A stretch of DNA of 64,000 nucleotides from Takakia lepidozioides (taxonomy: Eukaryota; Plantae; Bryophyta): positions 57,164,001 to 57,228,000 of the forward strand of contig CM060734.1 of the NCBI GenBank assembly GCA_030704615.1, given 5' to 3'. Of this stretch, positions 25,901 through 51,573 are shown piece after piece (the first letter of the stretch is position 1; each line of letters opens with the position of its first letter). A program made the position numbers and the translations under genes. Below the pieces are notes generated by a model. It was given only the letters and a program-made list of their open reading frames with translations, searched no databases and had not been told where the DNA came from.

Positions 25901-27893
25901 CCTGGCCGCCCTGGAAAAAGGCAAAAAGGTGCATGGTGACATCATCAAAGCTGGAGTTGTACCAGACGTCATTCTGAACACTGCCATCGTCAACATGTAT
26001 GCCAAATGCGGCAGCATCGAAGATGCAAAGGGGGTATTCAACAATATGGCTGAGAAAACTGTGGTGTCCTGGACTGTTATGATTGCAGGATATGCGCAGC
26101 ACGGGTGTGGAAGGGAGGCCTTGGAGATGTATAAGCAAATGATGGGGGAAGGGGTAAAGCCAGACCAGGCCATGTTTGTTTGCGTTTGCAATGCGTGTGC
26201 AAGCCTTGCAGCGCTTGAAAAGGGCAAAGAGGTCCATGGTGACATCATCAAAGCTGGAGTTGTACCAGATATCATTCTGAACAATGCCCTGGTGGACATG
26301 TATGCCAAAGGCGGGGGCATGGAGGATGCAAAGGGAGTGTTCGACAAAATGACTGAAAGAGATGTGGTGACCTGGAACGCTCTTATTGCAGGATATGCCC
26401 AGCATGAGTGTGGTATAGAGGCCTTGGAAACATATGAGCAAATGATGCGGGGAGGGGTGAAGCCCAACCAGGTCACGTTTGTTTGTGTTTGCAATGCGTG
26501 TGCAAGCCTGGCAGTCCTGGAAAAGGGCAAAGAGATCCATGGTGACATCATCAAAGCAGGAGTTGTACCAGATGTCATTCTGAACACTGCCCTGGTGGAC
26601 ACATATGCCAAATGCGGGAGCATGAAAGATGCAAAGGAAGTGTTCTCCAGTATGGTTGAACGAGATGTGGTGACCTGGAACACGTTGATCGCAGGATATA
26701 CACAGCATGGGTGTGGGATAGAGGCTTTGGAGACCTATGAGCAAATGATGCAGGAAGGGGTGAAGCCGAACCAGGTCACATTCGTTTGCGTTTGCAATGC
26801 GTGTGCAAACCTGGCAGCCCTGGAAAAGGGCAAAGAGGTCCATGGTGGCATCATCAAAGCTGGGATTGTACCAGATGTCATTCTGAACAATACCCTGGTG
26901 GACATGTATGCCAAATGCGGGAGCCTCAAGGATGCGGAGGTAGTGTTTGACTATATGGCCCAGCGAGATGTGGTGTCATGGACTGCGATGATTGCAGGAT
27001 ATGCCCAGCATGGTTGTGATATGGAGGCCCTGCAACTGTTTCAAGAAATGCAAATGGAAGACTTGAAGCTGAACGGTATTACGTTTATATGTGTTCTCTC
27101 TGCATGTAGCCATGCTGGCCTGGTGGATGAAGGCAGATACTACTTCAACTCCCTGAGTCAAGATCATGGCATCACTCCAGCAGTTGAGCACTTTGGCTGC
27201 ATGGTGGACCTTCTTGGCCGTGCGGGGCAATTGGATGAGGCAGAAGGCTTAATTTACAAAATGCCTATGAAACCAGATGCTGTGGTGTGGAGGGCCTTGC
27301 TTGGTGCCTGCAGAATTCATCGCAATGTGGAGATGGCTGAACGTGCGGCAACAGCTATTCTCAAGTGGGATGAACAGGACGGGGCGACTTATGTGTTGCT
27401 ATCAAACATCTATGCTGCAGCTGGCAGGTGGGACGATACTGCAAAGGTGAGAGAAATGATGAAGGTCAGAGGGGTTAGAAAGGAGCCAGGTCGCTCCTGG
27501 ATTGAGGTCGGTAACAGAGTGCACACATTTGTTGTAGATGACAAATCGCATCCAAAAGTTGAGGAAATCCATTCTGAGCTGAGAAGATTGTCTGGGCAGA
27601 TGATGGAGGCAGGGTATGTGCCTGATACGCACTTTGTATTGCATGACATGGGGGAGGAGCAAAAGGAATTTTCTCTGTGCCACCACAGTGAGAAGCTGGC
27701 CATTGGTTTTGGGCTGATCAGCACGGCCCCTGGGACGCCTCTCCGCGTTATCAAGAATCTTAGGGTGTGTGGTGATTGCCACACCGCCACCAAGCTCATC
27801 TCAAAGATTGCTGGGCGAGCAATTGTTGTACGGGACTCTAACCGCTTTCACCACTTTGAGGATGGGGTTTGTTCTTGTGGGGATTACTGGTGA
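22990..27893 (+). CDS. PLS-class DYW-type PPR protein with three N-terminal PDF motifs; predicted exons 22990-23215, 23391-23470, 23747-23945, 24144-24223, 24403-24535, 24686-24780, 24972-27893
   Basis: Paralog of 7140-11762. 5 PLS triplets, PG box KEPGRSWIEV, HSEKLA/CGDCH, SCGDYW*. In-frame exons: WQEFFKDPSQWLDCSVDK|(diverged) QDYRQSTQEGSWIQGSFSPPW; WHEYFKDPSQWSDKHNGK|TDLRSPDYRHK..LWVDGWSNPPWV; LWKEYFSDPSQWWDNQGKK|IYRRRPDFKHKSTYDFLWIDIYKKPAWV. Confidence 0.9.
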
Positions 27894-29670: not shown

Positions 29671-30616
29671 CCTATAGACAGAGACACGCACCTTGATCAC
29701 TCCACATGGTCCTAGTGCACATGGGTATGTAGTTCAACCTGGCCTAACTTATGTGGACAGCATGGAGCAGGTAATCATGAGCAAAGTGTGGGAACTAGGT
29801 GGTATCACAAAGATTGCCAGCTTTAGACTGGGGTTTTGTTACTGTTCCGAGTCAGAGAGGGAGTAGCCATTACTCCCTTTTTTTTCCCAGACCGCGTGGG
29901 TGGGTCCAAAAGGACCCTTATTATTTTTTTGTTTTTTTCCGCAAAGCCCTTTACAGGGGTCGCGGGAGCAAGAGGTGGTGTTCAAGCACCCCTCCTGCCC
30001 CTTGTAGGCAAGGTCATCTTTCGGGACCCCTTGTGAGGCTCTCGCGAACCTGCAAAGATGCCGCCATTTCCAACTCATCCGTTGCAACGTTAAAAGATGC
30101 CAACGTCTGCGAGGCATTCGTTAGAGCCACGTCCATGGACGGCAACACATTCGAAGCCCGCTTCAGTAGGGCATCAAATCGTGCAAACAACTCCAACGGC
30201 CCTCTCAATGCAACATCAAGCACGTCCTTGTGAGCAACACTTGAGGCCATTTCCAAAGAGCGCAAGAGATTAATGGGGCCACCAAGGCCTCCCCTCTTTT
30301 TATATGGATGGATGGATGGTTCCTCCTGGAGGCTGGATGGCTGGCCGGTTACTATTGTTGTGCCTAGAACGATACATCACCAGAACAGATATGGCAAATC
30401 AATTGGAACACAAATGAACACTAAAAGTTATAGGATGCATCTCAGCAATGTGCGTGACGGGGCATGTACATGTCACTCGTGAAATTTTGCATCATCCATA
30501 ACGACCATGGCTTTTTCTAACCCTAAACTGGAAAGTTGACATCATGCTGGATAACGCCTTCCATGTATGCTGGCAATCAGACCCTATTGTTGGAAGAGCG
30601 AGAATAGTAAGCTGCG

Positions 30617-32141
30617 ATGAGCGACGTCACCGCCAATCCTCGGCAGAGCGTGCAGTGCCGCCCAGTTGGTGGAGGTGTTGGTAGTGGCGACAGCGGTAGC
30701 AGCACAAAGCAAGCGAGCGAGCGAGCGAGCGTTGTGCAACAGTGGGCCCCACGCCAATCAAGCCGCCTCGATCGGCTCATCACTCAACTCATTCAGCCAT
30801 ACAGACAGCCAGCTCCAGCCCTGGCGAGCAACACAACAAATCCCACAACCCCTCTCATGTTCCTGATGCGCACCACCACCAGAAGCCAAGCTCCAGACAA
30901 TTTCAAGAAGCTTCGTCATCTTCACCACGGTCTCCTCCCCTGCGGATGTTCTTCCACTGGCGCCCCACCGACTGAAGAACACCCACTGCGTCTGTTGAGC
31001 CCTCTCCCACTGCGCCTCTCAGGTACGGTCCGAGGTCCCATGCTGATCACTTCTCCCCCAGGTTCTCCATCCCATTCTCGGCAGTGGCTTCAAGGCGTCC
31101 CTACCTCTCTTGGTCATGAGCCTCTTCACGCGCCTTCTTCTCCAGTTGTGCAACCCGCATTGGCGACCCCATTACTCTTCCCACAGCATCAGACGCCTAT
31201 CCCTGTAGACCGTACCCCGTGCCCAGCTTGCGGTCGCCTTTTTGCGCGCATCAGAGGGCTTGCGCGACATCAGCGCACATGTGCGGCTCTTCATCAGACG
31301 GGCACAGATGGTACTTCTCCATTTCAGCCCCGTGTCTTGCATGCACCACCTCCAGCCTCTGCATGGCATTGGCTTTCAGCTCTAGATGCACTGGGCGCGC
31401 TTCAACTAGGACTGCCATGGCCTCGTCTTTATACAAGAATCCCGATGCCCCTGCGTCATGAGGTCCAATGGGCACTCCGTCTGCCATTAGACAGGCTCGC
31501 TCGTGATCCTGATGATATACCAGCATGGTATTTTTTCTTGTTATTTCCTCAGTGGTGTGCCCCCTCGCGGCGGTCAGTCAGGGCACAGGGAGACGCACAT
31601 CCGTCTTCACCGTTTCTAAATCTGGAGATTGGGAGAGTCTACAAGATGAGCATTATTTACAAGCACTGGCTCTCGCGGCACGTGTGCCTTCGGCTTCCTC
31701 CACACAGCCACCATCATCGGCCCACAGGCGACTCCGTCATAGTCTCATATTAGGCCGTGTTGTCGAATACTCACGCACAGCCAGGGCTTTGGCACCTTTC
31801 ACTCCAGCGCCCCCATCAGCGGCTACTGTCACTGCCCTTGAAGCCCTTCACCCATCAGCTCAGGATATCCTTCCGCTCTTCGTCGAGGACTTTGAGCCAG
31901 ACCAGGATCTCGAGCTGGATCGGAAGGTCTTCACTCAGGCTTTTACGCGCTGTCCCCATTTTGCAGCAGCAGGTCCTTTCCGGTCTCTTGTATGAGCACT
32001 TATGCGACTGTTTCTCTCCACAGGACTTTGCCAGTGGCTTCTCTCAGCTATTTCAGGTATGCTCCTTTATTGCTGCCGGGCATATCCCTGCCCAAGTGGC
32101 CCGTCTCCTTGGGGCCTCCAGAATGTTGGCTATGAGCAAAC
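30617..32141 (+). mobile_element. CRE-like (RLE-type) non-LTR retrotransposon, 5' part (frameshifted)
   Basis: C2H2-like finger CPACGRLFARIRGLARHQRTC; downstream ..AAAGP.. and ARLLGASRMLAMSK, which joins in frame to PSVRPIAAREVFYRL at 49251 once the insertion is removed. Confidence 0.8.
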
Positions 32142-32911
32142 GAGGGCAGCAAAGCCGTGAGCATATTCCTGGATGCGTGAGCAGATTCAAAGCGTGAGCA
32201 AATTTCTGATGCGGACCCCAAAACCGTGGGAACAAGTGGGCCTATTGCCGTGGACGCCAACTTCACTACAACGACGCAATCTCCGCTCCATCAGACCGAA
32301 GACAGACAGATTCCATGACGACAAAGTGGCACGAATGCACGATGAAACATTCACGGATGAATGGATTTGGGATGGACGTAAAAGTGAAATGGATGAACGT
32401 TGGATGAAGCACGGATGAAAATTGTCCAGATGAGGGGACTATAGACAATTGTATGAGCATGTCTCGTGAGGGATCAGCAAGCGCAGGGACCAAGCATTAA
32501 GGTGTCGTCAACGACATCTTAAATCGCATACTCAACATGAAAAATGAACCCATGAAAATCGTTGCAAGATGTCGTGCACCTAAGCATCGTGCCACAACAT
32601 ACATTGTTGTCCACCACACAATCTAAGCACACAATCCTAGAAAGCTATACCACAATCGCCCCCCTAGCTGGTGGTTAGGTCCCTCTAACTCCAGATAGCT
32701 ACAAGATGTAATAGCCACAGCTGTACTAAGTCCTCTATCACTGTCCCTATTGTACTCAAACTCTATAGACCAAGAGGTCGGGTACAAGAGCAACCCCATC
32801 GTTAGTTGTCGTCTTGCAATCTGTGAACTTGAGTCAGGATCTCGTGTGTTGGTCTCCTAGTAGCTTGGCCTTGCATTTCTTGTTAGCCTTCCATGGTTGT
32901 ATCCACTCCCA

Positions 32912-33060
32912 CTATCCAATGCAATGCGGACATAACCAATCCCCATCAGGAACCATCTCAAGAGGTGGAGTCAAGCATCCCATATGCCAACCTCTAGAGC
33001 ATTTGATCACACACCAGCATGGTGGCTGCCCCTCTAGCAGACCCACACAAGATGCACCTC
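32912..33060 (-). pseudogene. PHD finger at the C-terminus of the Gypsy integrase (1-bp frameshift)
   Basis: CILC..MLVCDQ/CSRGWHMGCLTPPLEMVPDGDWLCPHC is a C4-H-C3 PHD pattern with the conserved W. Confidence 0.85.
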
Positions 33061-34330
33061 AAACTTGCAGGTACCACTGCCAGGTTTGGGTCAACCTTTC
33101 CATCAACATTTGGAAGGTGACATGGCGCGCAATTACGCACATGGTCCTTCCAAATCATGCCATCCCGACCCTCCAAGATCAGGACTCCTGAGGGCAACAG
33201 CTCTTGAACCCTCAAAATAGTACGTCCTGCAGTCACATCCAAGGTCGTAGGAGCAGTCTACTGCAGATAAACATAGTCACCAGGGTTGAATCTCCGAACC
33301 CTAGGACGATAGCCCCCACCACGTATGGTAGCATACCTCAACGTATCACGATGTTGTGCAATGGCAAGGTTCTCGAAAGCCATGGGCATGACTTTCTTGA
33401 ACAACTCTGCACGCTGCTCACATGCATGTGCCCACACGTCCGGATCGTCAAGGTTAAGAACTGTAGCAGCTTCTCTACGAATGGATGTAGGCAAATCCGG
33501 CTCTCGGCCAAAGAGAAGAAAGTATGGTGAGAAGGAGGCAAGTGATGCTTGCTTGCTGAACCTGTAACCCATGGCTAACCAGGGTAACTGAAGGTCCCAA
33601 TCTCCTAGGTGTCCCTTCTCCAAGCCATACTTGCGCAAACCCCTCTTTACTGTCTGAACAACTCTCTCTGCCAAGCCATCGGCCTCAGGATGATCCCGAG
33701 AAGTGGTGGGGTGGTCTATCAAGGCCTTGTCACACAAAGCCTGAAACTCCCCCAAGAACTCTCTCCCTTGGTCCGTGAGTACCTCAGCTGGAGCACCGAA
33801 TCGGCTAAGCATACAATCCAAGAATGCATACGCAGCTCCCTCACTAGCCTTATCAGGCAATGGAACCAATTCAATCCACTTGGAGAAGTGCTCCACCATC
33901 ACCAACACGTACTTGTTGTGGCGCATGGTCAGTGGCAACGGCCCTGCGAAGTCAAGACTCCACCTGTAGCCCAATCCCATGATCGGAAGAGGGTGCAATT
34001 GTGGAGTAGGGGTGTGGAATGAAGCACGCACCCTGTCACACACCATGCACCTAGCCACAAATTGTTGCACCTCTGTGTGCATACCACGCCACCCATACTG
34101 CCCCTGCAGTAGACTATGAGTGCGTCGCACCCCAAAATGCCCCAACTCCTCATGGGCATGCCGCACTAACCGTGCCCGCTGTGTTGGGTGAGGCACAATC
34201 CTCACTCGACCATCCTCCCACACTCAGAGCAGGTGTGTCCCCTCCCACTTGAACCTCTTGGCTTGTTGTAGGATCCGATCCCTCTCCTTGGCAGTCACAG
34301 TGGCTGCAGTGTCTCCAGTGCGGAGGTAGT
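33060..34330 (-). pseudogene. Gypsy integrase
   Basis: HEELGHFG..CMVC (HHCC), SLDFAGP, TDQGREF, GLAER (DDE), FNPGDYVYL; in-frame stops at ~33258 and ~34225. Confidence 0.92.
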
Positions 34331-34370
34331 CCAACACAACTGAATCCTCGTGTATATCTTTGGCACCACC

Positions 34371-35173
34371 TTACTCATTGTTGGCCTCAGGGTCCTCAGA
34401 CACTTGATCTACAATCATCCCTGTTGCAGGTCCAACCTGGCCTTCCGCTGCCAAGATACACAGAAATGCAGATGCATGCCATCCGGGCACCATCTCCTCG
34501 TCCGTCTCACCATGCCACCGAGCTCCAGTGTCATCCTGCTGGCTCGTGCAACGATTGCGACTCAACCCATCTGCATTGCGATTGACCAAACCCGGTCGAT
34601 GCACCACCTGAAAGTCATACTCTTGAAGGATGAGTGCCCACCGTGCAAGCTTCCCCGTAAGCTTGTCTGACTCCATCAACCACTTGAGTGGTTGGTGATC
34701 CGTGACAAGGGTGAAGAGATTGCCGTATAGATAGCACCTGAAGTGTGCCACGGCCCACACTGCAGCTAAAGCATTCTCCCTCATATGAGCTATACTTAGA
34801 CTCTGCAACATTGTTCGAGCGGCTAGCATAAGCCACTACGAACTCTCTTCCCTCATCGTCCACCTGTGTGAGCACCGCTCCAAGCCCCAGCATGCTCCAA
34901 TCTGTATGCAGCTGAAAAGGACGCCCCCTGATAGGTCGTCTCAAGATGGGCACCGAGGTCAACCTCGCCTTGAGCTCTTGAAAAGATTGTTCATGCTCAT
35001 CTTCCCACTGCCACTCCTGGTCCACCTTGGTCAGCTTGGTTAGAGCCTTTGCAATGGCACTAAATCCCTTAACAAACCGTCTATAATAGTTTGCTAACCC
35101 CATGAAAGCTCGAACTCGGCTCACATCCGTGGGGCGTGGAACCTGTGCAATGGACTCTACCTTAGTCTGCTGT
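34371..35173 (-). pseudogene. Gypsy RT connection and RNase H
   Basis: RAFMGLANYYRRF, LHTDWS..GLGAVL, VAYASR, TDHQPL, RWAL, NADGLSR; frameshift near 34770. Confidence 0.92.
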
Positions 35174-36349
35174 CACTACAACAAATTGCGGCTTTTACGT
35201 CTCTGTGTTATGACTGCAAATGCAGTCATGGAAGCCATTTACGACTTCCTGACTCTGCAGACGTAAAGACCTAGTCAGTTGTGACATGGCAGATATGACT
35301 CTCCAGGCTGGCTGTCACGTGGCACCAGAGCAGCTGTGGGGGTAGTCATACACGCTGGCTTTACTGAATGACTGAACGGACAGTGTAATCCATGTCAGCG
35401 GCTGTGCAAGAGTGGCACGTGCTCGATGCAGGAAATGACACGTGGCAGAGTGTTTAGCTCTCCATGACTGCGAACTATGACTACGGGTGTGCTAATCCGG
35501 TTGCAACACGTGGCGCATTGCAGTTTTTACACGTGGTCCATCAGCAGATTGACATGTGTCATGATGGGTGTTTTTTTGGGGTGTATTGCTATTTTTTTAC
35601 ATATTTGTATTTCTGCCACGTGGTGTAGTACTATTGGAGAGTGAAAATAGATGTAGTCATTATTATGACTATGATAGCAGTCATGTACATGTCTATTACA
35701 ACAATGAAATATAATATATAATACAAAGAGAACAAGGCAGCAAGACATAACTGCAACAAGCTGAGCAAAACCAAGAGATTGCATACCATCTCTATTTACC
35801 AATCTATTTATCATTATCATTTTTGTTGCGATCTAAAAATACATTAAATAGTCGCATGTTCTCATGTGAATTATTTTGTCTAACTATAACACTTTGAAAA
35901 GTGTTCACCCAGAATCTTCTAACTACTCATGTATTCCATCAATCTGCAACCCATCAAAAACGACTTGCATGGCTTTAAGAATTACTACAGCAAGGACATT
36001 TGTTTGTTTACCAAGTTCTTGCATAAGATGCACCAACCAATATTGCATTGTGAGACACTCACTCGCTATACTCCAAAGCGTCCAGGGAAGGTCACTGAGC
36101 AACCTGCCAAGGCGGAAACAATTAAGAGAATTATCTAATACCATATATGAAAAACCAATGCCAGTGTTGTTTATGGTAACTTCTATCCCATGTCTTAAAC
36201 AAACCAAAGCAAAAAGGTTGGTGTGTATTGGCGAAGTCGTCAGATACTTCACAAAGAAACATGCACTAAAAATGAAACCCAGGATGATAGGAAGGTCACT
36301 CACGTTTATACAAGAGACATCTTGCCCATTGCCCAACACCCTGCGTCAC

Positions 36350-39300
36350 CCACACTCTATCTCTATTCCTTCAGCTATCCATGCCTCTGCACAAATCAAG
36401 CATTCATCCTTGCCTTGCTGCTAGCAGCTGACAATGATAGCCTACATTTGTTCTAGGAAACACCCAACTCAGCGTAGCACACTAGTTCCTATGCTGAATT
36501 GCGTCTGCTACTCTCTGAAATGTAGCAGGCATTCACCTTTCTGCCCCGGTTGACCCATCAGTGACTGGGCTCAGATAACTATTCATTCCACAGCTTCTCC
36601 TCATCTCTGTTACCTATTTTTTGACACTTTCCTGTTGTCACATTGGCAGTATCATGTCAAAGTCACTCCAAACTAGATTCACTCAACCAGCTAACTTGCA
36701 GAATTGAACATGTAAATTTAGGGCCGATTCTGATAAGAGGGAAAAACAGGGTGAAATGTGTTGAAGAAGATGCCTTCATTAGCAGTGCCTGATTTTATCA
36801 CTTGTGCCGCTGCTCCCAGTTGACCATCTACCCATGCAGGTTTCTTGTAGCTATTGATCCACAGGGAATCACAGGTAATCTTGTGCTTGAAATCTGGCCT
36901 TCTTGGATGAATCTGGACCCACACAAAATCCCTGCTCCTTCAGCTATCCATGCCTCTGCACAAATCATGCATACATCCTCGCCTTGCTGCTAGCAGCTGA
37001 CAATGACAGCCTAGAATTGTCAAAGCAAACACTAGCAGGGAAAACAGGGTGAAATATGTTGAAGAAGGTACCTTCATCCTTTTCTCCATCATTTGCTTTC
37101 AGGTGTCCAAAGCCCCATCCCGCGCTCCTGCTCTGCACACCCTTCAAGCATCGCATTCCACGACACCACATCTAGTTCAGCCATAGTGTTGAACACTCCC
37201 TTGGCATCCTCAATGTTCCCACATTTAGCATACATGGCCACCAGAGCCATGTTCAGGATGACATCTGGTACAATTGCAGATTTGATGATGTCACCAGGGA
37301 TCTCTTTGCCCTTTTCCAGGGCTGCAGACGCACTGCAAACGCACACAAACGTTATGTCGGCGGCCTTCACCCCTTCCCCCATCATTTTCTCAAAGGTTGG
37401 AGCCTCCATCCCGCACCCCAGCTGTGCATACCCAGCAAGCATCGCACTCCACGACACCACATCTCGTTCAGCCACAATGTTGAACACTCCCTTTGCATCC
37501 TCAATGCACCCACAATTGGCGTACATGTCCACCAGGGCAGGGGCAGTGTTCAAAAGGACATGTGGTAATTTGACAGGCATTCACCTCCTGACTTGGCTAT
37601 TCCCAACCCATCCTGCCATTGGCAAGAGATTCCATAGAAACTGATAGTTGTCTGTTTGACTGTATAACTATGTATCTCTTGCTTTCTTACAGCTTGTACT
37701 GTGACACGCGTAATGCTCTTGTTGTGTTGAATCATTTCACGCCTTCAGGTTTCAGAACAAACATTACCGTCTTTCTTTATCAGACATGTGCACCAAGACA
37801 GAATCTCACCAAAAGATTGTTGGTGTTCAACAGTACCATACATGAAGATAACTAGCACCAAAAGGGCATATGAAGCTTATTCTGCTCTCCACTGGTATTA
37901 ACTTGCACCAGGACTTTCAATGGCTGTCTTCCAGTCCACCCACGGCTCGCTGTAAATGGCTTGCAACCTACAGATTTTCAAGAGAGCTGATTACCATGAA
38001 AATTTCAAAACTGGCTTTACAAACCTAATAATTCAAGCATAATCAGCATTCAAGCTAAGGAAGCTTTACAAGCATCGTGTTGCGAGTAAAGCCTTGGCAA
38101 TGTCACCAGGAAATCCCTAGCTGATTGGATGACACTGAAATAATGGAGCTTGAAATCCGGCCCTCTTGGTTGAATTTGGGCCCACACTCTATCCCTGCTC
38201 CTTCAGCTATCTATGCCTCTGCACAAAATCCTTCAGCTATCTATGCATACATCCTTGCCTTCCTGCTAGCAGCTGACAATGACAGCCTAGAATTGTTCCA
38301 GCAAACACCCCCAACCCTACTTATCAACGAGCAATGAGCTAACTTACAAAATTCAATATGCATCTGAGGGCGTCTGATGAGAGGGCAAAACATGCTGAAA
38401 TAGGTCGAAGAAGAAGGTGCCCTCACCACACTGTCCTTGACCTTGTGTCATGACCCATGGAGGATTTGACCTTGTGTGTGATGCTTGTGTCTGTAGTCAG
38501 GTAATGTCGGATTGGTCAGTGAGAACTTGCACCACGGTGCAGCTGAGCAGGCAGACTTTGAAACACGGTCTGCTAAGACCAAGCCGACTCTCCCAAGAAC
38601 CTTGTAAACATCAGGAAGAATATCAAATCATGGTACTAACAGGAGCCAACAACCCACATTTGCAGGATGGACAAAATTCTGCACATCGTACATTTCAAAA
38701 AAACCACACCTTGCAATTGCGGTCGCACCCTCGTGAAGGATCTTAAAAAAACTCATGCCAGCTCTGCTCCATGATTCAAATTCAGGGCCGAGTCTGATGA
38801 GAGGGCAAAATAGGCTGAAATAGGTCGAAGAAGAAGGTGCCCTCACCACATTGTCCTCGACCTTGTGTCATGACCCATGGAGGATTTGACTGAACATGAA
38901 CCCAAGATGACCTCTAGTGTGTGCTGCTTGTGTCTGTAGTTAGGTAATGTCGGATTGGTCAGTGAGAACCACCACGGTGCAGCTGAGTGGGCAGAGATTG
39001 AAACACGGCCTACTAAGACCAAGCTAACTCTCCCAAGAACCTTGTAAACATCAGGAAGAATACCAAATCATGGTACTAACAGGAGAGCCAACCCACATTT
39101 GCAGGATGGACAAACTTCTTCACATCGTACATTAAGAAAAAGCCACACCTTGCGATTGCGGTTGTCCCACCATCGTGAAGGATCTTTTAGAAACTCATGC
39201 CAGCTCTGCTCCGTGCTGTAAAATCAGGGCCGAGCGGGTAGAGATTGAAACACGGCCTGCTAAGACGAAGCTGACTCTCCCAAGAACGGCGGGCTCCCAG
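36350..39300 (-). pseudogene. Captured, scrambled PDF-exon, intron and PPR fragments
   Basis: IHPRRPDFKHKITCDSLWINSYKKPAWV (36800-36915); PPR motifs 37100-37560; ~420-bp tandem duplication (38372/38792) of the PDF2 exon-intron unit; WHEFLKDPSRWWDNRNRK|gt at ~39150-39200. Confidence 0.85.
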
Positions 39301-39559
39301 CCGAAACCTCCTCGCACACATACCCTAGCGTTTCTAGGGTTGCTTGCTCCAGATGCGAAGGTTGATCCAACTGCGGGCCTCCCATGCATGTTTGCCCTCT
39401 CTCCCGCTCGCTCGCTCTAAGTCCCAACCCTCTCTCTCTCCCTCCCGCTCGCTCTAAGTCTGTTCACGCTACCGTGATGAGCAACTTTTTAAGTTTTTTA
39501 ACCTTTTTGTAAACCCTAAAAGCCCCTTTTTGATTTTTTTTTGTTTTTTATTTTTTTCC

Positions 39560-39740
39560 TTAAAGGAAACCACAAGCCCTTGAGGAGGGGGAAAATTCAC
39601 CCGCCTTCATTTATGGGCCATAAGACCTACAGGACGATCAACGTCAAGACATACCGTCTCGAACAATCCCACACACGGGATAAGGGCAGCGGGTTTGAAC
39701 CCCAAACCACAAGGGCGACACACTGTGCACTTACCAGCCG
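39560..39740 (-). mobile_element. tRNA-derived SINE-like copy (5'-truncated)
   Basis: Shares GGGCAGCGGGTT(T/G)GAACCC..ACACTGTGCACTTACCAGC with 60460-60536; B-box-like GGTTCAAACCC on the minus strand; A-rich tail. Confidence 0.55.
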
Positions 39741-40203
39741 ATGTGATTTTTTTTAAATCTTTGTTTTTTTTGGGTTTTTTTTAATTCATTCTAGTGGTAA
39801 GAGTCTCCGTTTTTTTAAGATATAAATACTCATATATTATATATATAACCAGAAAAGCATGTGTCGACACGTGTAGTCATGTAGTGATTCATCCATGTGA
39901 TGATCTGGCATAATGCATTAGAGTGAGAGTCATGAAGTCATATGTCTGTCTTGCAATATGCACACGTCATTCCAGTGTAGCCATGACCGTGACTGGTAGT
40001 CATATCTGCCATGCCAATATTCGTGGTCAAACATGTTTGACCTGTGTTGCGCAGAGTCCGAAGCCATGCAGTCGCATATACGCCTTCTCCAGACCTGCAT
40101 TATGACTTCAAAAGCATTTTACGACTGCAAATGGCATTTCTGCCACAAATCTGTCATGACTGCGCACCCATGGGAGTCATAAAAGCCGCAATCTGTTGTA
40201 GTG

Positions 40204-40955
40204 TGTACCCCCAATCCTTCAGGATATATCATGTGACCCAGATACTCAATCTGGTTGTGGAAAAACTTGCACTTTCCCGGATGTAACTTCAATCCGTGCG
40301 CCCTCAAGCGCTCAAATACCCCTTGAAGGTATCTCTCATGCTCTTCCACCGTAGCACTAAAGATGATGATGTCATCTATGTAGCACCGAGCAAACTCCAC
40401 CCCTGCTAGAATCCTGTCCATGACTCTCTGAAACTCTGCCGGAGCGTTCTTAAGCCCAAATGGTAAGAACCGCCACTGGTATAGGCAATCCTTCCCGTGC
40501 TCATTGATCCCCCAGAATGCCGTCTTTTGCTTATCCGCCTCCTTGATCGGCAACTGCTGATATCCAGATCGTAAATCCAACGTGCTAAAGACCTTGGCAT
40601 GCCCAATGGCATCAAAGATCTCCTCTGGTGTTGGCATGGCATACTTATCGGACTTGGTCTGACGATTTACAGGCCGGTAATCACCGCACATACGTCTCTC
40701 CGTCCAATTGCCAAAGACATCCTTCTTGGCTAGCATCACTGTGGCTGAAGCATACTCTCCCCCAGATAGCTCCACCAAACCAGCCTCCCAAAGGTCCTGA
40801 GTTCTCATCTGAATCAAGGACCTCTCCATGTCACTGTATCTATAGGGTCTCCGAAAGATTGGCGTGTCAATAGCCAATTCAATGCGAATCTCTTGACCCT
40901 TCAGTGCTCCTAAGTCCTTCAAACTGAAGGCAAAGCAGTTCCTGTAAGCCCTCAA
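40204..40955 (-). pseudogene. Gypsy reverse transcriptase core
   Basis: PIFRRPYR, RMCGDYRPVN, LDLRSGYQQ, LPFGLKNAP, YIDD, KCKF, YLGH. Confidence 0.95.
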
Positions 40956-41317
40956 GAACCGCCGTATACGTCGTCTCTCTCCTCCGTGACTGCAACCTTG
41001 AGTCCAGCAGGCTTAGAGGTAGAAGACGCGTCCCGTGGTTGTTATGCTGCAACCTCTTGAGCAGTGACCACTGCCTCCTCTGTCAGTGACAATGTCTCAT
41101 TCTACCCCATCATCCCATCCTTGAGGACCTCCTCAATCCGAGAAAAATCCCCAACCTGATCCATCACCGCCGCCTTGGCTGCCAACTCCTTCTGAACCTC
41201 GAGCACCTCCAACGTGTGCCATGGATGTGGCCTGCACTTCGTGGTCCTCACCTGCTTGCCCCCACTCGCTGCCTGTACCGTCTCGATAGGCAGGGAGACC
41301 ATGAAGGGAAGAGTACT

Positions 41318-42300
41318 TCATACTCTGCGCTGCTCAGTCATAGTCAAGCTGATAATCCAGGTCAAGCAATTGAGATCTATTGCTTGCCCCAACACCTGAC
41401 GACGTGATGCCTCAGAAAGAGATGGCACCACCGTGGTACCTGTGGTAAAACCCATCGCCCGCTCGCGCTCGTCAGCATTGGGCTCCACTAATTGTTGCAA
41501 CTAGCTATCCCACAAGTGGCCAGGTCCACCATCCCGAAAAGCATGGGATCCTGGGAAGCTGAGCAGTGTAGGTAATGCTGCTCATGGTTGACCCACCCTG
41601 TTGACCACTGCCAAAGGCGAACGGTCATCGTGTCTCACACGTTGAGACTGCCTCCCTGTGTCCAAAATGCTATCCACTGTGAAGTGTGCTGGCCGCTGCA
41701 CCCCATCAAATGCACGCTTGAGCAGTGCGGGTGGCATCAAGATAGTCCACCATAGCCGTGGACGATGAGCCCATGACCCCACTGCAGCTGCATCCAGCAA
41801 CACTGCTGACCCAAGCCACGACCGGACTTGATGCACACCGGCCATCACCCTGGCCCGAGAATCACCCATCAGTGGTACATTCTCCAAGATGTATGCTGGA
41901 GATACAGCTTGATGAAGCTGCAAGTGGCGCAAAATCCGCACCATCTCCCAAAACAGACCCGTCCTCGAGTATCGCAATCCATTGCCATGCCTGGCTGATG
42001 AATGCCCTTGGCAGGGCCAACCTGCCACTACCAGATCAATGGAGCCAACCCGCTCCAAATCCTGTGCCCCCAGCAACGAAATGTCTGCTGGCAAGGCTTG
42101 TTGGTATCCACGAACTGCAGACACTGGCAACAAATCAGGGTACTGCTGTACCAACTGAGCAACATGGCGCAGTGAGACGCATCGTGCAGTCTCATCCCTC
42201 TCCACATACATGTAACGTTGAACTCGTACACTTGCCTGCTGTACTGCAGCCAATCTAGTGCTGATCCCGCCAAACAAGTCCAGAAGACATATGCCTTCAT
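41318..42300 (-). pseudogene. C5 cytosine DNA methyltransferase domain (DNMT3-like) within the Gypsy polyprotein
   Basis: Motif I LLDLFGGIS, II VERD, IV VVAGWPCQGHS (catalytic PC), VI ILENV, VIII HRPRLWW, IX ERERAMGF..GTT, X RRQVLGQAID; same frame through two stops (~41582, ~41502). Confidence 0.9.
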
Positions 42301-42603
42301 CCGGGCACTGCCACACAAGAGGTGTGGTGTCCAATGGCAACAACTGAGGTGGTCCTGGTGCAATCACCGCACTCTCCTCTTCTCCTGACGATACGAAGGC
42401 CTCTACCCAGGCTTGTTGTACCCGTCCATCAGCAGCCTGCTGCAAATCCTTGCTCGTACCCCATAATGGAGTGTGAGCGACCATGGCAGGCAACTCCGCC
42501 GTACCATGCAAGTCATCCTGCTCTGCTGGAGGTGGCACATCCTCTGCATGGGCATTGCCTTCCAGCAACTCTCCAGGCCAACTAACTGCAGCTGTAAAGG
42601 CGG

Positions 42604-43797
42604 CTAGTGTTGGTAGCTTGCCCGCTGGGCAGCCGCAATACCCCCAATGAATGTCACAGGGAGCTGTGCACGACGACCATCCCCTGACTGCCATCCAGGC
42701 CTGTAGGATGCTGACTCCTCCCAAAAGTCCAGGATGAAGCCCATGGGATATAACACTGCCCCACCAACAAGGACATCGTAAGAGACCGCGTCTGTCACAA
42801 TGGCCTTGGCTTGCATCACTGAGCCATCTACAGGATGATCTGGTTGTAGTCCAATGGCCAACTCACGCCGTGTCATGCCCCGAGCCTGCTCTGATCCTTC
42901 CAGAGATGTATGTATCTAGAAAGGACAAGGCTCCATATCCGCCTCCATGAGGCCCAAACCTGCAATAGCAGCTCTGCCCAACATCAGTGGCTGAGCTCCT
43001 GAGTCCAACAAGACCCGCAGTGGCCGGTACTTCTTGCCTGCCGGTCCACTCAAAGTGAAAATGCCTCCCTGGTTGTCTAACAAGACAACTCCAGGTGTCA
43101 CCATGGCGCGCTCAAAGGCTGGCCTAGCTGGCAGCTCCGTCAACCTGGTAGCTGCAGCTTGCCATGGCGCAGCCGTGGCCGTCTTGACCCTCAAATCCGA
43201 GGATCCCTCTGCCACTACACCTTCCAGTAACTCCGCAGAAGATGAAGTGACCTCCCCACTCTCGCAGAGTGTTGCTGCTAGTCTGAACACTGCAGCTGGT
43301 CTTACCCCCGGCGTCGCAATCATGGTTGCCGAGAATAGTGGGGCTTGACACATAGAGGTGGCTGCCCCCAATAACACACCGGCTGCACTAGCCTTGGTAG
43401 CAGGTGTCAGTGCTGCACGTGTAGCTCTCCCCAATGGCATAGTAACCTCCGCCTCGGTAACAGTCGGGCGAGAACTAGGTGCCATGGATGGCGTCGACAC
43501 TGTCTCCGCCAATGTGAATGACTGAGGAAGCCTCGCCTGACGGCTTGCCTCCCCACGCTGTGGATCCAATTCTACCTCTGCACCTCGTGGCTCAGGAACT
43601 CGTGCTGCTCCTCGAGTCATGGCTACAGCAGACTCCACCTGCACTAGTGGTAGTGCTGCTCCGCACATGAATCCCATGCCTCCCATATCTCCTCCCTCAG
43701 GAGCAGGAGGTGGACCATCCCGCCTGGGAGCCGGTACCACCTGAGCTGTAGCCATGGCAGCGAGCCTCTGCTCTAGCTGCTGAAGCCGGTTGGCCAT
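42604..43797 (-). pseudogene. Gypsy gag-pol linker and aspartic protease
   Basis: VLLDSGAQ active site and downstream YDVLVG; in-frame stop at 42916. Confidence 0.85.
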
Positions 43798-43899: not shown

Positions 43900-45215
43900 T
43901 CACCCCCGGCCACCATTGTTCCCTTGGAAATGGCCTGGGCGCAACTCAGGGTGCAAGTCATAACACTGGGCATCTCCATGCCCATACTTGTCACAACGCC
44001 CACACTGCAACTGTGCAGGCTGTGCTTGTGTCGGCCTTCTGCCACTCTCTGGGCAATCTCTCTTGACATGGGGTCCTCTACATGTCCAACATATCACCCC
44101 TGGTTGTTGTTGGCCTGCAAAGATGCCACGGGCCTCTGCACCTGAGGTCCCCTGTAAGCTCCATGGAACTTGGGTTGGGCAACCTTGCCCCCCTGACCAC
44201 GTTGTTGGGCAGTCCCTTGTACCTATTGGCACCAAGCTGCACCTCGTGCAGGCATGTCCTTGCCAAATCCAATGGTAACAACTCGCTCCTCCACCATGTT
44301 GAGCTCAATCCGCTCAGCCAGCAGAAACACATCCGCTAATGTGGGTTGGGCTGCTTGTAACAGGGTTGCATCCCGCACCCTTCTCTTGAGCTCCTTGTCC
44401 AAAATTCCATACTAGAACTGGACTGCCTGAGCTTCAGTAACCCCTTGGGTCACACTTATCAAGCGCCTCATCCGAGTGTAGGCCTCTCGCAAGCTCTCAC
44501 TGGATTTGCGTTGGAAGTCTTGCAAACTTCGCAGCTTCTCTGTCCGTACACCTTGGTAGTTCCTCCGCAACTCCTGGAAGAACTCCACCACCGGGTTGAA
44601 TCTAGGCACATGTGTTGTAATTCTGGCAGGAGGAGTAGTAGCACCTTTTGAACGGGTACCACCTACACAAGTGCCGGCACTACTTGTTCCACTACTAGTG
44701 CTTGTAGTTGGAGATGTTTGTGTAGCTGCTGGTGTCACCACTGCCCTTGTGCCTCTAGTGATTGAGACATAGTTAGGTGACCAATTCTCTCGCCACTCCT
44801 TAATCTCCACCGCATGTCCCCGCCTAAATTCATGGTAATCATACATGGGCGGCCCCTCAAGGTGCTGGAATAGCCCCTTCCACGCCATAAAGGGCGTAAA
44901 CAGTTGTGGATTGCGCATTTGCTGCAAATCACACCAACTGTCAAACTCTTGTATAAAGTCATCAAGCTCGATGGTGCCCACAGCTCCAGAGTACCTACGT
45001 GGCCCCTTGGTAGCTCCATACATCTCCTCCATCGTGTCCCACAACAATGGCACGGAAATGACTTGCACCCTCGGCGAGAATCCTCCTGACTCCGAGTCTG
45101 AACCTTCCTCAGTAGACACTGAAGGTGAAAGTGGTCTAAACCGCACACCTTGTCTTGTGTACCCACTAGTATCGCTGGTGTTTGTACCGGCACTCCCCTC
45201 AGCAGCTGGTGGCAC
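43900..45215 (-). pseudogene. Gypsy gag with two zinc knuckles
   Basis: RRYSG..LDDFIQEF, LQDFQRKSSESLREAYTRM, CWTCRGPHVKRDC and CGRCDKYGHGDAQC. Confidence 0.8.
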
Positions 45216-46029
45216 CTCCGTGATGAAAACTCATAACCCAACCGGTTGTCAACCTGTCTCTAATCCCCACTTTCTACAAGGTAACCGAGTAAAGAACCTG
45301 TTGCGGCTACTGGTTCAAGCAGGAATAATAGGTTTATAACGTAGACCTGTACCTGCACCTGCATCCACCGCAAGCACTCCTATGGTCTGCTGGTCATCAA
45401 CCCAGCCTCACCATAGAAGAAACACTGGTGGTCTTGCTGGTCATCACTCCAGCCTCACCACCGACAGCATACTCTAGGATTGGCCGGTGATCAAATCCGG
45501 ACCAACCTCCTATGAAAACAAGCGCCCACACAAAGCTAACATGGCGCACAGTCAAGCATGCAGGTGTGGAGGGGATCCAAACACAAGAAAATCAAGACCG
45601 CAACTCCCCCACAACAAAAACACTCCACAGTGTCGCTCCTGCAAGGACACCCCAGCCCAAACCCGGACTGACTCTTGCCTCCACCTACGGAAAGGTTTTG
45701 GCCTACAGAGAGGGTGAAATACTATGGAGAAGAGAAACTAAAGCAATTCCTAACCCCAGAATGCTCTCATCCCACCACTCTCCCTCCTGTCTCTATCCAC
45801 TCGCTTGTATGGCCGTGGCAAGTATCCTTCAATATCCCTCAATCAATCCTTCAAGAGCTCTTCAACATTGTCCACCAAAGCTCCTCAAAGGGTCCTCCAA
45901 GGACCCCAAAGATCCTCCAAACACTCCTCCAAGGACCCCAAAGATCCTCCAAATACTCCTCCAAGGGCCCTCAAATATCTTCCAAACAATCCTCCAAAGG
46001 CCCTTAAATTTCACTAAGTCATTTCACTG

Positions 46030-46430: not shown

Positions 46431-46929
46431 CTACTAGGGTTTGTAATTTTGTGTGTTGGGACTGTCTCACATGCCAAGTGAGGTGTCGAGCCTCACTTGA
46501 GACATGGAGATAGGTTTTCCCCTTGTGAGTGTTGAGGAGGCTCATCTTCTTGTAGTTGAGCCTCCATGAGCTTCTCTCACCTCCATGCAAGAGAGTAGCT
46601 ACCGCGTGAGCAGTTCACGTGAGCACGCTCACGCTTTAAGTAGTAAACGTGAGCATAATCCCTTACGCGTGAGCAGATTAGTGAATGAGAGCCTACAACC
46701 GAGGGAAGAAGATGACCTATTGTCATGGACAAATACTACACTGTACAGACACAATCTCCACCCCATGCGACGGAAGAATCCTTCATGGGTGACGACCATA
46801 TGGTACGAATGTGCGATGAAAAGCTGTCGGATGAATGGTTTTGAGATGAATGAAAAAATGAATGGATGAATGTTGGATGACTTTGGATGAAAAATGAGCA
46901 ACATGAATGAACCATGGTGCGTGTGCAGG

Positions 46930-48310
46930 TGCTCGGGATTAGAGTGTCGTCAACGACATCTTAATTCCCAGTACGAGTTGGCACATGACAGCTTACGGAA
47001 AACAAAAACATTAACCAAAAAAATTTCAACCCAAAAACTTTCAAGGCGAAGAAGCCTTGGCGGTAAGGCAGAGTGCAGGTGGTGGGGATTAAGGTGTCGT
47101 CAACGACATCTTAATTCCAAGCAAGTTTTAAAAACAAAAAAAAAATCCGTTTTTTTTTTTTTTTTTTTTTTTTTTGTTGCCCCCCCTTCCCCCCCCCCCC
47201 CAATGTGCCAGATTAAGGTGTTGTCAACGCCATCTTAATTCCTAGCAAGTTTTCAATAAAAATAAAAAAATCCGTTTTATTTTATTTTCCCCCTGAATGT
47301 GCCAGATTAAGGTGTCGTCAACGACATCTTAATTCTCAGTACGAGTTGGCACATGACAATTCATGGAAAAACAAAAAAAAACCCAAAAAAATCACACAAA
47401 AAATTTCAACCCAACAAAATCTGATGGCGAACAGCCTTGGCGGTAAGGCGGTGTGTGTGTAGGTGCTAGGGATTAAGGTGTCGTCAACGACATCTTAATT
47501 CTCAGTACGAGTTGGCACATGACAATTCATGGAAAAACCAAAAACCCCAAAAAAATTCACCCAAAAAATTTCAACCCACAAAAATCTGATGGCGAACAAG
47601 CCTCGGCGGTAAGGCGGTGTGTGTACAGGTGCTGGGGATTAAGGTGTCGTCAACGACATCTTAATTCCCAGTACGAGTTGGCATATGACAATTCATGGAA
47701 AAATCAAAAACCCCAAAAAAATTCACCCGAAAAAATCTGATGGCGAACAAGCCTTGGCGGTAAGGCAGTGTGTGTGCAAGTGCTGGGGATTAAGGTGTCG
47801 TCAACGACATCTTAATTCTCAGTACGAGTTGGCACATGACAATTCATGGAAAAACAAAAAAAAACCCAAAAAAAATCACACAAAAAAATTCAACCCAAAA
47901 AAATCTGATGGCGAACAGCCTTGGCGGTAAGGCGGTGTGTGTGCAGGTGCTAGGGATTAAGGTGTCGTCAATGACATCTTAATTCCCAGTACGAGTTGGC
48001 ACATGACAATTCATGGAAAAACCAAAAACCCCAAAAAAATTCACCCAGAAAATTTCAACCCACAAAAATTTGATGGCGAACAAGCCTTGGTGGTAAGGCG
48101 GTGTGTGTACAGGTGCTGGGGATTAAGGTGTCGTCAACGACATCTTAATTCCCAGTACAAGTTGGCATATGACAATTCATGGAAAAATCAAAAACCCCAA
48201 AAAAAAGATTCACCCGAAAAAATCTGATGGCGAACAAGCTTTGGCGGTAAGGCAGTGTGTGTGCAGGTGCTGGGATTAAGGTGTCGTCAACGACATCTTA
48301 ATTCCCAGTA
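46930..48310. repeat. Tandem array of 151-167-bp units, each with a palindrome; ~485-bp higher-order repeat
   Basis: ATTAAGGTGTCGTCAACGACATCTTAAT cores at 47312, 47478, 47644, 47795, 47962, 48128, 48281 (spacings 166,166,151,167,166,153), plus 46944, 47094, 47217. Confidence 0.9.
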
Positions 48311-49241
48311 CGTGTTTTGAAATGTTTATTTATAAAGCACGAGTTCACCTCTCTGCCTTCTTTAGATTTGGGTGTGAGCATTTCTCTCAACCTTGGAAAC
48401 CGTTTGATTCAAGGTGGCCTCAACTCTGCACCTCTGCTTTCAATTTCAATGTAGTCTTGTGTTTGTTCTGTGTTATGCCATTATCTTGTTTGATTGCTTT
48501 TTTTGATTCCTACACAAGTTGGGCTAGCAGAATATATGTGGACTTACATTGTTTGTGTGTGTGTACAGGAGCCCAAGGTCGCCACGGTTCCTCCCTTTCT
48601 TCGCATATCCGCAATTTTTCCCAAGTCCAAAAGCAGATTTTAAATTGTCATGTTATGCGGAGGCTGCAGCTTCGGAATTTAGTCTCCTCTCTTCTACCCC
48701 TACTGTGCTTTTAAATAGAGAGGGTTTTGTGCAAAGCAGGGCTAGTGTCTTCATAGACAGTTCTGCCTTCATTTTGGACACCGACTCCGATAGCATAGAA
48801 TATTCTTCGTCGGAATGAATCTGCAGTTTTTAAACTATTTAGTTTGAAGCACCAAATGGCCTCTCTACCTTCTTTGCAATTGTGTGTCAGCAACTATGTC
48901 GACTTCTGATACCTAGTGAAAGGACAATCACAACCCTCACCAGTGGGCAGAGGTTCACTCTAGAGCTAGGTGGATTTAACAACCACTACTCAAAAATGCA
49001 TCTTAGTTTTGCATTCATCCACAAACTACATTCATCCATGTGCCATTCGTCGAACATACATTCATCCCCCATTCATCCATCGTTCATCCATCATTCATCC
49101 ATAACGATGAATGAAGTATGCATGATATACTAGACACAACCCGCAGTAATAGGTCTTCTAGGCCGAATAGGTGTCCGCGGTTATAGGTGAGCACATGCAG
49201 AAGCGTGAGCAGAATTTTGCTCACGAAATTTAGCAATCCCC

Positions 49242-51573
49242 TGAGCAAACCCTCAGTCCGCCCCATTGCAGCCAGAGAGGTTTTTTACCGCCTTGTCAGC
49301 CGCTTGCTTTGCTTTCAGTTTCGAGACGCATTCTCCGCCCACCTCTTTCCTCACCAGCTCGGGGTCGCCACTCCAGGAGGTTGCGAGGCGGTGGTTCAGG
49401 GGATTCGTGTTGCTCTCAATCTTCATCCGGATTGGGTGGTTCTACAGGTTGACGTCACCAACGCTTTCAACACTGTGTCATGGGCGGCTATCTTCCTAGA
49501 GCTCCGTTCAGCCGGGGGAGATTTCCACCAGCTCACCGTTTGTTTGATTATTCTATGCATCTGCCACTTCCCTTTACTACAGTCATCATTCTCGCCTGGG
49601 TGAGTGCTCCATCATTCAATCCGAGGTTGGGACCCGCCAAGGCGACCCTTTAGGAGGACCTTTGTTTGCCACGGCTCGCGTCCGCTCCCTCATGGCTTCT
49701 GCACAAGTACATTCATCTTGTCTCTTTCCATCGGTGGCAGACGACACGCACATCGTAGGCCCTGCCTCGCAGATACTTCCAACTTACCATCATTTTATCA
49801 TCCAACTCGATGTCGTGGGCCTTTCAGTGCAACCTCGCAAATGTGCGGTGTGGTCTCCGTCCTGTCTACCTGAGATTTTGTTCTCCCTGCTCATTTCATT
49901 GCTCCGCCCAATGGCATCAGAATCTTGGGAGTCATTTGTGACATCACCCAGTTCACAAAGTCCTTCTTAGAAGATGCACTCCACCAGGATGCCACCCACG
50001 CTGATCTCCTTCCTAAGCTTCGAGATGTGCAGGTACCATACGGAATCTTGATCAAATGTTCCTTCAGCGTCCCTTCTATCCAACTTCTATCTCTTGCGCA
50101 CAGTTCCACCTAGCCCAAATTTCCTACACCTTTTATCTGGGTTTGATTCTATCATGATGGCCATTTTCGGGAGATTGCTAGGACCAGGAGCTCTGGAGGG
50201 TGCTCAGGGTCTTTTGCCACGGCAACAAATCACCCTGCCCATCTCTTCCGGTGGTGTGGGTCTTTTGTCCACCGTCACTACAGCCCCAGCAGCCTTCCTC
50301 GGGAGTTGGGCGTTGGTTGTGCCAGCCCTCGCTTCACGATTTCTCTGCGACCATCGTCCCATCCTTATGGACGCCGTTGCGCATGTCGACTGTGGCATTT
50401 TACCCTTCCAACAACATCTCCGCTCTGCACGTGATCTTCTTCTGGCACCGGCGCGAGCATGTCTACCACCATTTGAGCAGCTGGTTACTCAAGGCCTAGA
50501 CCATCTTCAGGAGTCCATTTCCGAGCGCGTGCACCGTCATTCCTTTTCCGGCATGCTCTCAAGTGCTTCTTTCTGAGTTACATCGGGCCCGAGTTCTATC
50601 ATGCGCATGACCTAGAGTAGGGGCGTGGTTGGCAGCACGATCCACTAGCGCACTTTTCTGCCTCACATCCCTTCTTTTCACTACTACACTCCGCCTTCGA
50701 CTCGGTTTACCTCATCCTTCAGCATTGGGCTTTCAGAGATGCGTCTGTCATCAGCCCATCGATGACCTTGCCATTCACCTCCTCCGCTGCCCATGTGGTG
50801 GCGAGCGCACTGCATCTCATGATATGGTTCGTGATGCGGTGGCATCTGTTGCTCGGGAGGCAGGGTATTATGTACTACGTGAGCAACCCCATCTTCGGCC
50901 GACGCTCACATCCCACTCTGCACGCCGCCATGTTGACATCGTTCTCTCCAAAGATGGTCTGCGTACCCTTGCAGATGTTGTTCTCGCCGACCCCACTCGA
51001 ACAGATCTACTATCTCGCGCAGCCACCACACAAGGCACGACAGCCACTATAGCAGCTCAGGCCAAGGAGCGCAACTACAATGATCGTGACCCCACCGACA
51101 GATTTCTTCCGCTGGCGGTCGAGATATTTGACTCCTTGCACAGGCACTTCGATGATTTCCTTCGGACATGTGCACATCATGCAGCGCAGAGCAAGTCCAC
51201 TGGCATCCCGCATGCCTCCGTCCTTGTCGCATACTATCGGCAGCGAGTTTTAGTTGTTTTGTAGAGAGCACAAGCCATATCTATTTTGCATCGGGCTGAT
51301 GTGGTTGGCTCCGCGTCATCTCATCTTCCGCCTATGCTTGACACTTTGTCTATCTCATTGCCTGATCTCCTTCAGGCTGTTGGTTTGGAGGGTCATCTGG
51401 TTGAGTAGCCTACTATAGCTTTTGTTTTCTTCCTGGTTGAGTAGCTTACTATAGCTTTGTTTTCTTCCTCTTGTTTCTTGCTTCTTTCCCCCCCTTTTTG
51501 GGAGTTTCTCATCTTCTGTACATTCGCCCATTGTACATGTTGTAAATAAAATCTTACAGGGTTTCATCATCAT
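49242..51573 (+). mobile_element. CRE-like non-LTR retrotransposon, 3' part: RT, CCHC and restriction-like endonuclease
   Basis: QLGVATPGGCE, QVDVTNAFN, GTRQGDPLGGPLF, SVADD; CVC..HLLRC..SHDMVRD; RHVDI..LADV..DP, AKERNY, PLAVE (RLE motif); AATAAA and a (CAT)n tail near 51545-51573. Confidence 0.85.

Follow-up and report, generated by a model that had tools for sequence, protein, structure and literature searches.

Does a retrotransposon of a land plant carry its own DNA methyltransferase, and if so, how would the enzyme be made and what would it act upon? The question is raised by a locus of Takakia lepidozioides located in a 64,000-nucleotide stretch of contig CM060734.1 (assembly GCA_030704615.1), which was analysed as a whole and is called the window here; coordinates are window positions. 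A sequence-only reading had placed the motifs of a C5 DNA methyltransferase (DNMT) within a Gypsy element, on the pol strand between protease (PR) and reverse transcriptase (RT). The explanation that we favour, with a rough probability of 0.6, is that a conserved stop codon after the first open reading frame (ORF1) is leaky, that DNMT is made at the level of the capsid protein and that it probably methylates the element's own cDNA.

Anatomy of the window locus

The locus represents a multi-copy family of Gypsy LTR retrotransposons, but this copy is dead, as it contains several frameshifts and stops and lacks an LTR pair; a 5-kb CACTA insertion is a further defect. From the 5′ to the 3′ end of the element, the following features were recognised.

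45231..45950, minus strand: 5′ non-coding leader (approximate); contig depth at element level up to ~45917, then a drop
43903..45230, minus strand: gag with two Cys/His knuckles; stops and a frameshift near 44118
42650..43110, minus strand: aspartic protease, DSG at ~43005; stop at ~42916, frameshift near 42620
41321..42319, minus strand: DNMT3-type C5 methyltransferase domain; stops at 41582-41584 and 41501-41503
41045..41320, minus strand: 92-codon linker, end of ORF1; private stops at 41318-41320 and 41102-41104
41036..41044, minus strand: family-wide in-frame stop followed by CAA CCA (CARYYA), predicted readthrough site between ORF1 and ORF2, from comparison of loci and contigs
40207..40958, minus strand: RT; RVT_1 E=3.5e-32
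35174..40203, no strand assigned: nested non-autonomous CACTA element; 30-nt terminal inverted repeats 90% alike, 3-bp target duplication
34374..35172, minus strand: RT connection and RNase H (RH); RT_RNaseH_2 E=1e-23, RT_RNaseH E=2e-17; frameshift near 34768
33261..34223, minus strand: integrase (IN), zinc domain and rve core; Integrase_H2C2 E=1e-14, rve E=5e-14
32913..33060, minus strand: C-terminal PHD finger, read from the translation; split by a frameshift near 33003
32570..32700, minus strand: conserved 3′ block, a G-rich tract followed by the motif found next to the 3′ LTR of relatives; 87-93% match to L004, L009, L012, L015 and L024

The domain order PR-RT-RH-IN is that of Ty3/Gypsy elements. 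RT and RNase H lie 5 kb apart because the CACTA element inserted between them, and a CACTA-free form of the element is present in contigs of the runs X1, X7 and X9. Compared with contigs of X7 and X9, the window copy has a deletion of about 33 nt with a frameshift just upstream of RT (~40980). Two Pfam matches stayed below the cut-off: that of gag (Retrotrans_gag, E=0.002), with a best-segment identity of 52-76% to the closer related loci and of 27-28% to L016 and L018, and that of the protease in the intact relative L016 (Asp_protease_2, E=2e-4), the protease region being matched in related loci. The intact ORF2 of L016 contains a PHD finger (E=2.6e-10), and no chromodomain was matched in it. 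The available text of PMC6317226, a source on Chlamyvir/Tcn1 chromoviruses, mentions neither a PHD finger nor a methyltransferase.

At the 3′ side, the element ends with the motif at which relatives pass into their 3′ LTR; contig depth drops there and the 3′ LTR is missing. No intact 5′ LTR was recognised at 45231..45950, nor any repeat pair with the 3′ end. The relatives L004 and L024 have direct LTR pairs that are 92-94% alike. A 71% match flanking the element (46648-46880 and 32176-32407) was rejected as an LTR pair for two reasons: it is covered at no more than a tenth of the element's depth, and the internal region resembles a sister contig at ~97%. Most differences between the window copy and sister contigs are transitions, running the way that cytosine deamination would produce. 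As for priming, a tRNA primer site of the TGG type is missing downstream of the 5′ LTR in relatives (L004 6218-6230, L024 2012-2025, L016 8653, L018 8232), and a conserved CACGACAG motif precedes their 3′ LTR, with a G-rich tract 110-150 nt upstream. These relatives may prime in an unusual way, and self-priming is a guess. No tRNA genes were found in the 64-kb window.

The DNA had been taken for that of a land plant, in agreement with the PLS-DYW type PPR genes in the window. The intronless PLS-class genes form a cluster (8517-11759, 24945-27890, 2085-2618 and 62228-63864; two complete with DYW; 303-nt repeat units), which is a local expansion of RNA-editing factors. In a DYW tree the two PPR genes of the window grouped with sequences from bryophytes and lycophytes (0.947), away from seed plants; ferns and hornworts were not among the named matches. 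Fragments of PLS-type PPR genes also lie inside the CACTA element (37063-37644 and pieces upstream), which is Pack-CACTA-like in this respect and has high contig depth over these inner parts in X1 and X7. The window further contains tandem 166-nt repeats, each with a 28-nt palindrome (46916-48316, and one copy at the element's 3′ side, 32483-32528), and a multi-exon host gene with SURP and CCCH-type motifs (14793-19744), whose SURP-domain exon had two matches only (Diphasiastrum 47%, Iris 39%). Decayed fragments of non-LTR retrotransposons were recognised by eye from translations at 4955-6810, 30611-32200 and 49187-51264.

The methyltransferase domain and its distribution

The DNMT domain is a single 333-codon frame (42319-41321) with two internal stops and matches the Pfam DNA_methylase profile (E=1e-10). 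Its motifs follow the canonical order I-II-IV-VI-VIII-IX-X, located at ~42270 (I), ~42202 (II), 42013 (Cys of GWPCQ, IV), 41884 (ENV, VI), 41764/41758 (HRxR, VIII), ~41470 (IX) and ~41389 (X), and the circular permutation of the DRM type is absent. The unpermuted arrangement between protease and RT was thus confirmed. The proposed DNMT3-like pattern was supported by profile and fold: a 49-row family profile ranked human DNMT3A first (5e-27), followed by DNMT3C/3B, DRM (6e-15) and M.HhaI (7e-10), and an AlphaFold model (pLDDT 94.9) had its best structural match in DNMT3A, from DNMT3A-DNA complexes (TM 0.72). The top cluster in the ESM Atlas was a eukaryote DNA_methylase cluster, mostly of Streptophyta, but it scored barely above phage clusters, so the match is uninformative. 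The viral contigs searched yielded only distant phage-type methyltransferases, with 24-48% identity over short stretches.

The catalytic Cys, ENV and RxR are intact in the window copy, and motif I and four other conserved positions deviate. Among aligned relatives, Cys-IV, Glu-VI and the second Arg-VIII are invariant (48/48), and the catalytic motifs are near-invariant at about 35% identity, which argues for catalysis. The residues that we take to form the CpG-reading loop and the homodimer contacts of DNMT3A appear, in an alignment made by eye, not to be conserved, so the sequence context of methylation is not predictable. The window copy itself cannot methylate anything because of the two stops inside the domain and the frameshifts upstream, and the suggestion that it could methylate its own cDNA or new insertion had to be dropped.

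Nested repeats and captured gene fragments abound in the window, so the domain could be a one-off capture, a nested insertion or a fragment of a host DNMT3 or DRM gene. We regard the probability of this as practically nil, as it was ruled out by depth, homologues and shared position. Summed contig depth in run X1, which does not equal copy number, was 0.56-1.07 M over DNMT and 0.74-1.30 M over RT, RH and IN; in flanking bins it was 5,000-91,000, about ten- to hundred-fold below the element. One 5,009-nt contig of X9 is colinear from PHD to DNMT. No RNA run was listed among those that contain the element. In 25 independent loci, as in named bryophyte proteins, the domain sits at the same place, and the DNMT and RT trees are congruent. 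The host enzymes DNMT3 (DNMT3-DUF3444; Yaari et al. 2019, PMC6453930, as far as its available text goes) and DRM share the DNMT3-type catalytic fold; the domain described here differs from them in being intronless, unpermuted and located within a retroelement, and it lacks DUF3444, which is absent from the Pfam labels of all 40 homologues. The DNMT domain is a family trait, not a one-off. Eight weak metagenome loci that were translated (of L051-L080) look like unrelated methyltransferases, with no host DNMT3 among them.

The 40 homologues came from a protein search and include many sequences of Marchantia polymorpha (mostly 52-71% identity), besides Calypogeia fissa, Sphagnum and Haematococcus. 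A representative search gave 53 clusters at E<=1e-30, and six of the ten that were looked up are from Closterium. The same layout was found in Marchantia, Calypogeia, Sphagnum and Closterium. Metagenome loci (53 examined of 80) had DNMT followed by RT in 25 cases and DNMT between RH and IN, or directly before IN, in 12. Likewise, 190 proteins comprised 39 with PR-DNMT(-RT), 65 with (RH-)DNMT(-IN) and 86 that were too short or held DNMT only; at least 41 proteins have DNMT between RH and IN. In trees of 50 rows the two architectures separated for both DNMT and RT, and 12 rows of the stop type, including three gene models assigned by kinship, fell on one side of a branch (98 in the DNMT tree, 99 in the RT tree). 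As judged from these trees, DNMT and RT have descended together.

DNMT Ka/Ks between lineages was 0.07-0.17 overall, with several Ks saturated; the four pairs with finite Ks below 2 gave 0.14 (L016-L017, Ks 0.26), 0.12, 0.10 and 0.17. Among decayed Sphagnum-like sister copies the ratio was 0.38-0.55 for DNMT and 0.27-0.71 for RT. These ratios indicate that the DNMT domain is under purifying selection.

Several observations concern the wider group. The second architecture, RT-RH-DNMT-IN-PHD, carries the same DNMT subfamily and is very diverse (L034-L042, L044, L046, L049, P0039 from Haematococcus and at least 40 more proteins); it forms its own group in the DNMT and RT trees, and no description of it was found in the literature examined. 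The Closterium (Zygnematophyceae) members are P0099, P0155, P0072, P0076, P0070 and P0087, with RT fused in frame where it is present (the first three). In several members from outside the land plants, motif IV reads WECQ, not WPCQ. Liverwort and peat-moss DNMT domains (P0003, P0008, L004) are 73-78% identical to each other and 65-71% to the window copy; the former value is high for such old splits and would reflect either slow evolution or horizontal transfer among bryophytes. Finally, run X9, labelled as a different organism, contains a contig ~97% identical to window 32627-42603, which may come from a close relative, contamination or transfer.

A conserved stop and hexamer between ORF1 and ORF2

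In this clade DNMT closes ORF1 (Gag-PR-DNMT), and one in-frame stop separates it from ORF2 (RT-RH-IN-PHD). A continuous gag-PR-DNMT-RT frame had been expected of intact copies; intact relatives have ORF1, stop and ORF2 instead. In the intact loci L016 and L018 this stop is the sole break between DNMT and the end of ORF2, and both ORFs are in the same frame. The stop is amber there and in nearly all family contigs.

The window copy contains four more stops nearby, within 41102-41584, where at least 98% of the X1 depth has another letter among the differences listed. At 41042-41044, the only difference among those listed still gives a stop. The stop at 41042-41044 is therefore family-wide, and the four nearby stops are private to the window copy. 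At the protein level, 17 selected ORF1-type proteins end 54-181 residues past DNMT; for Marchantia, the stop was inferred from such protein ends and not from DNA.

The stop is followed by a characteristic hexamer. All 25 loci that hold DNMT and RT have TAR-YAR-YYN at the junction, with the RT frame in 24/25. The strict consensus CARYYA is present in the window and L001 (CAACCA), in L016 and L017 (CAGTTA) and in L018 (CAATCA), and encodes Gln-Pro, Gln-Leu or Gln-Ser; CAACCC, one base off the consensus, is found in 19/25 loci, which belong to one Sphagnum-like family, and the first base is T in 2/25. The hexamer is kept while the dipeptides differ and the flanking linker codons diverge, which suggests that selection acts on the RNA. 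The window element, L016 and L018 have a single TAR-CARYYA among their 86-105 TAR triplets, within about 7.3 kb; L001 has two among 114, and the window as a whole has 8 among 2,537.

The readthrough signal of tobamoviruses consists of CARYYA behind a stop and is active in plant reporters, according to the available text of PMC2754532 and PMC4132726; the former source reports the hexamer to be sufficient for readthrough in plants, at 32% with UAG and less with UAA. A single in-frame stop with CARYYA that sets the ratio of two products is also what likens this junction to Type I (tobamovirus) readthrough and to the readthrough retroelements SIRE1, MLV and Tca2, as these are presented in the accessible parts of PMC2754532, PMC4132726, PMC2194720 and PMC3441728. 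In SIRE1, MLV and Tca2, as described there, the stop lies directly after gag, whereas here the predicted leaky stop follows the protease and an accessory enzyme. A leaky stop in this place would give PR and DNMT the dosage of Gag.

The main alternative to readthrough is that the conserved TAG is bypassed by splicing, as part of a 3′ acceptor, or by internal initiation, with DNMT still at Gag level and Pol made without DNMT. In its favour, a TAG can serve as acceptor, a T-rich run precedes the site in Sphagnum-like copies, and both splicing and internal promoters are discussed for other retroelements in the available part of PMC2194720. Against it, an acceptor does not need the CARYYA match that persists across three dipeptides, the two ORFs share a frame, and the window, L016 and L018 are without a pyrimidine tract. 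In addition, a contig from one run that is possibly RNA, though it may be DNA, spans the junction unspliced, and no joint appears among the differences listed. We consider this alternative quite improbable.

Under readthrough, most ribosomes would end at the stop after DNMT, giving Gag-PR-DNMT, and a minority would pass TAR-CARYYA as in tobamoviruses, giving the full polyprotein. Each Gag would bring a protease and a DNMT, and RT and integrase would come only from the minority. By analogy with the known signals, such a division is likely, with a predicted several-fold to 20-fold excess of DNMT over RT and IN. The available text of PMC2194720 states that retroelements need Gag in large excess over Pol.

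Possible function and comparison with known elements

What would a methyltransferase at Gag level do? We infer that the simplest use of this dosage is methylation of cDNA in the particle, as has been proposed for DIRS-Dnmt3 elements (PMC5890265, available text). Protease would release DNMT inside the particle, and DNMT would mark the new double-stranded cDNA before or at integration, so that the insertion arrives already methylated. For this sequence of steps we see odds slightly better than even. CpG observed/expected was 0.45-0.56 in the element, not below the window (0.48) or host genes (0.31-0.44), and the CpG/CHG depletion test was negative; there is thus no scar of self-methylation beyond the host background.

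This absence of depletion fits the chief rival to cDNA methylation in the particle, according to which DNMT is made as proposed but acts on chromatin after integration, with the PHD-integrase directing it to the insertion site or to sister copies, or else catalyses little and works as a module that binds nucleic acid. The PHD finger on the integrase, the second architecture in which DNMT adjoins integrase, and the inactivity of KnitGypsy-Dnmt3 in yeast (PMC5890265, in its available text) also favour it. Little catalysis is at odds with the near-invariant catalytic motifs, and the position in ORF1 ties DNMT to Gag and the particle rather than to integrase. We therefore hold this rival unlikely, though a serious contender, and retain cDNA methylation as the preferred reading. 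Members with fused DNMT-RT and with RH-DNMT-IN exist, so the wider group does not need Gag-level dosage.

The closest described element is KnitGypsy-Dnmt3 of Klebsormidium nitens (de Mendoza et al. 2018, PMC5890265). It was compared by description, as no sequence named K. nitens was among the homologues found. In the available text of that source it resembles the present family as a streptophyte Gypsy element with an intronless, unpermuted Dnmt3-related domain in its polyprotein, conserved catalytic residues and Ka/Ks <0.2. In the same text its DNMT is part of the Pol polyprotein ORF, whereas here it closes ORF1 before the stop and CARYYA; it is reported with DIRS-like repeats, whereas the relatives L004 and L024 have ordinary direct LTRs; and its host is an alga, not a land plant. 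A continuous DNMT-Pol ORF was found here only in the sister group with Closterium, DNMT and RT being fused without a stop in the related members P0032, P0063 and P0116 and in Closterium P0099, P0155 and P0072. The likeness to Gypsy-Dnmt3 that had been suggested is thus upheld for the Gypsy element and the unpermuted DNMT3-like domain, but not for the continuous Pol ORF and the DIRS-like repeats.

SymbioDIRS-Dnmt3 and the EpiLTRs are likewise retrotransposons with C5 methyltransferases. According to the accessible parts of PMC5890265 and bioRxiv 10.64898/2026.05.21.726589, they differ in being built on a DIRS backbone, or in carrying a DNMT4-related domain, together with DAM and a chromodomain, in the 3′ part of pol where it ends, and no such partners are present here. 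In yeast, SymbioDIRS-Dnmt3 showed de novo CG methylation, and the Klebsormidium enzyme showed no methylation, a result its authors called inconclusive (both in the available text of PMC5890265).

Retrotransposon-borne DNMTs in algae and protists are already known. New is that a family of the Gypsy-DNMT3 kind lives in a land plant and has a predicted readthrough switch, which would place the methyltransferase at Gag dosage. Marchantia, mosses and ferns are never mentioned in the available text of the 2018 Klebsormidium paper (PMC5890265); later papers speak of 'streptophytes' only and, where they give a source, cite that paper. According to PMC6338049, land plants such as tracheophytes lack elements of this kind, and the review builds a hypothesis on this absence. 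We found no land-plant Gypsy-DNMT, nor readthrough in this group, in the literature covered, which included the available text of PMC12344493, PMC6453930, PMC9033089, PMC11982613 and PMC9516144, with subscription papers, figures and preprint supplements outside its scope.

Our results indicate that DNMT retrotransposons form a multi-copy family in a land plant and are also present in Marchantia polymorpha, mostly annotated as hypothetical proteins. Counts of DNMTs in bryophyte genomes should accordingly be read with caution, as they include transposon copies. The conserved readthrough signal offers a clue to dosage: selection appears to have favoured much more DNMT than RT and integrase, a hint that the enzyme acts inside the particle or close to it. 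In a broader and rather doubtful scenario, a captured DNMT3 moved before the leaky stop, one per Gag, particles became methylation chambers from which cDNA arrives already methylated, and active families may impose de novo methylation on the host genome without host DNMT3 and RdDM. In a lycophyte or fern host, the finding would also overturn the published view that transposon-encoded methylases were lost in vascular plants. Marchantia polymorpha is a genetic model with methylation mutants, and the function of the enzyme is therefore directly testable.
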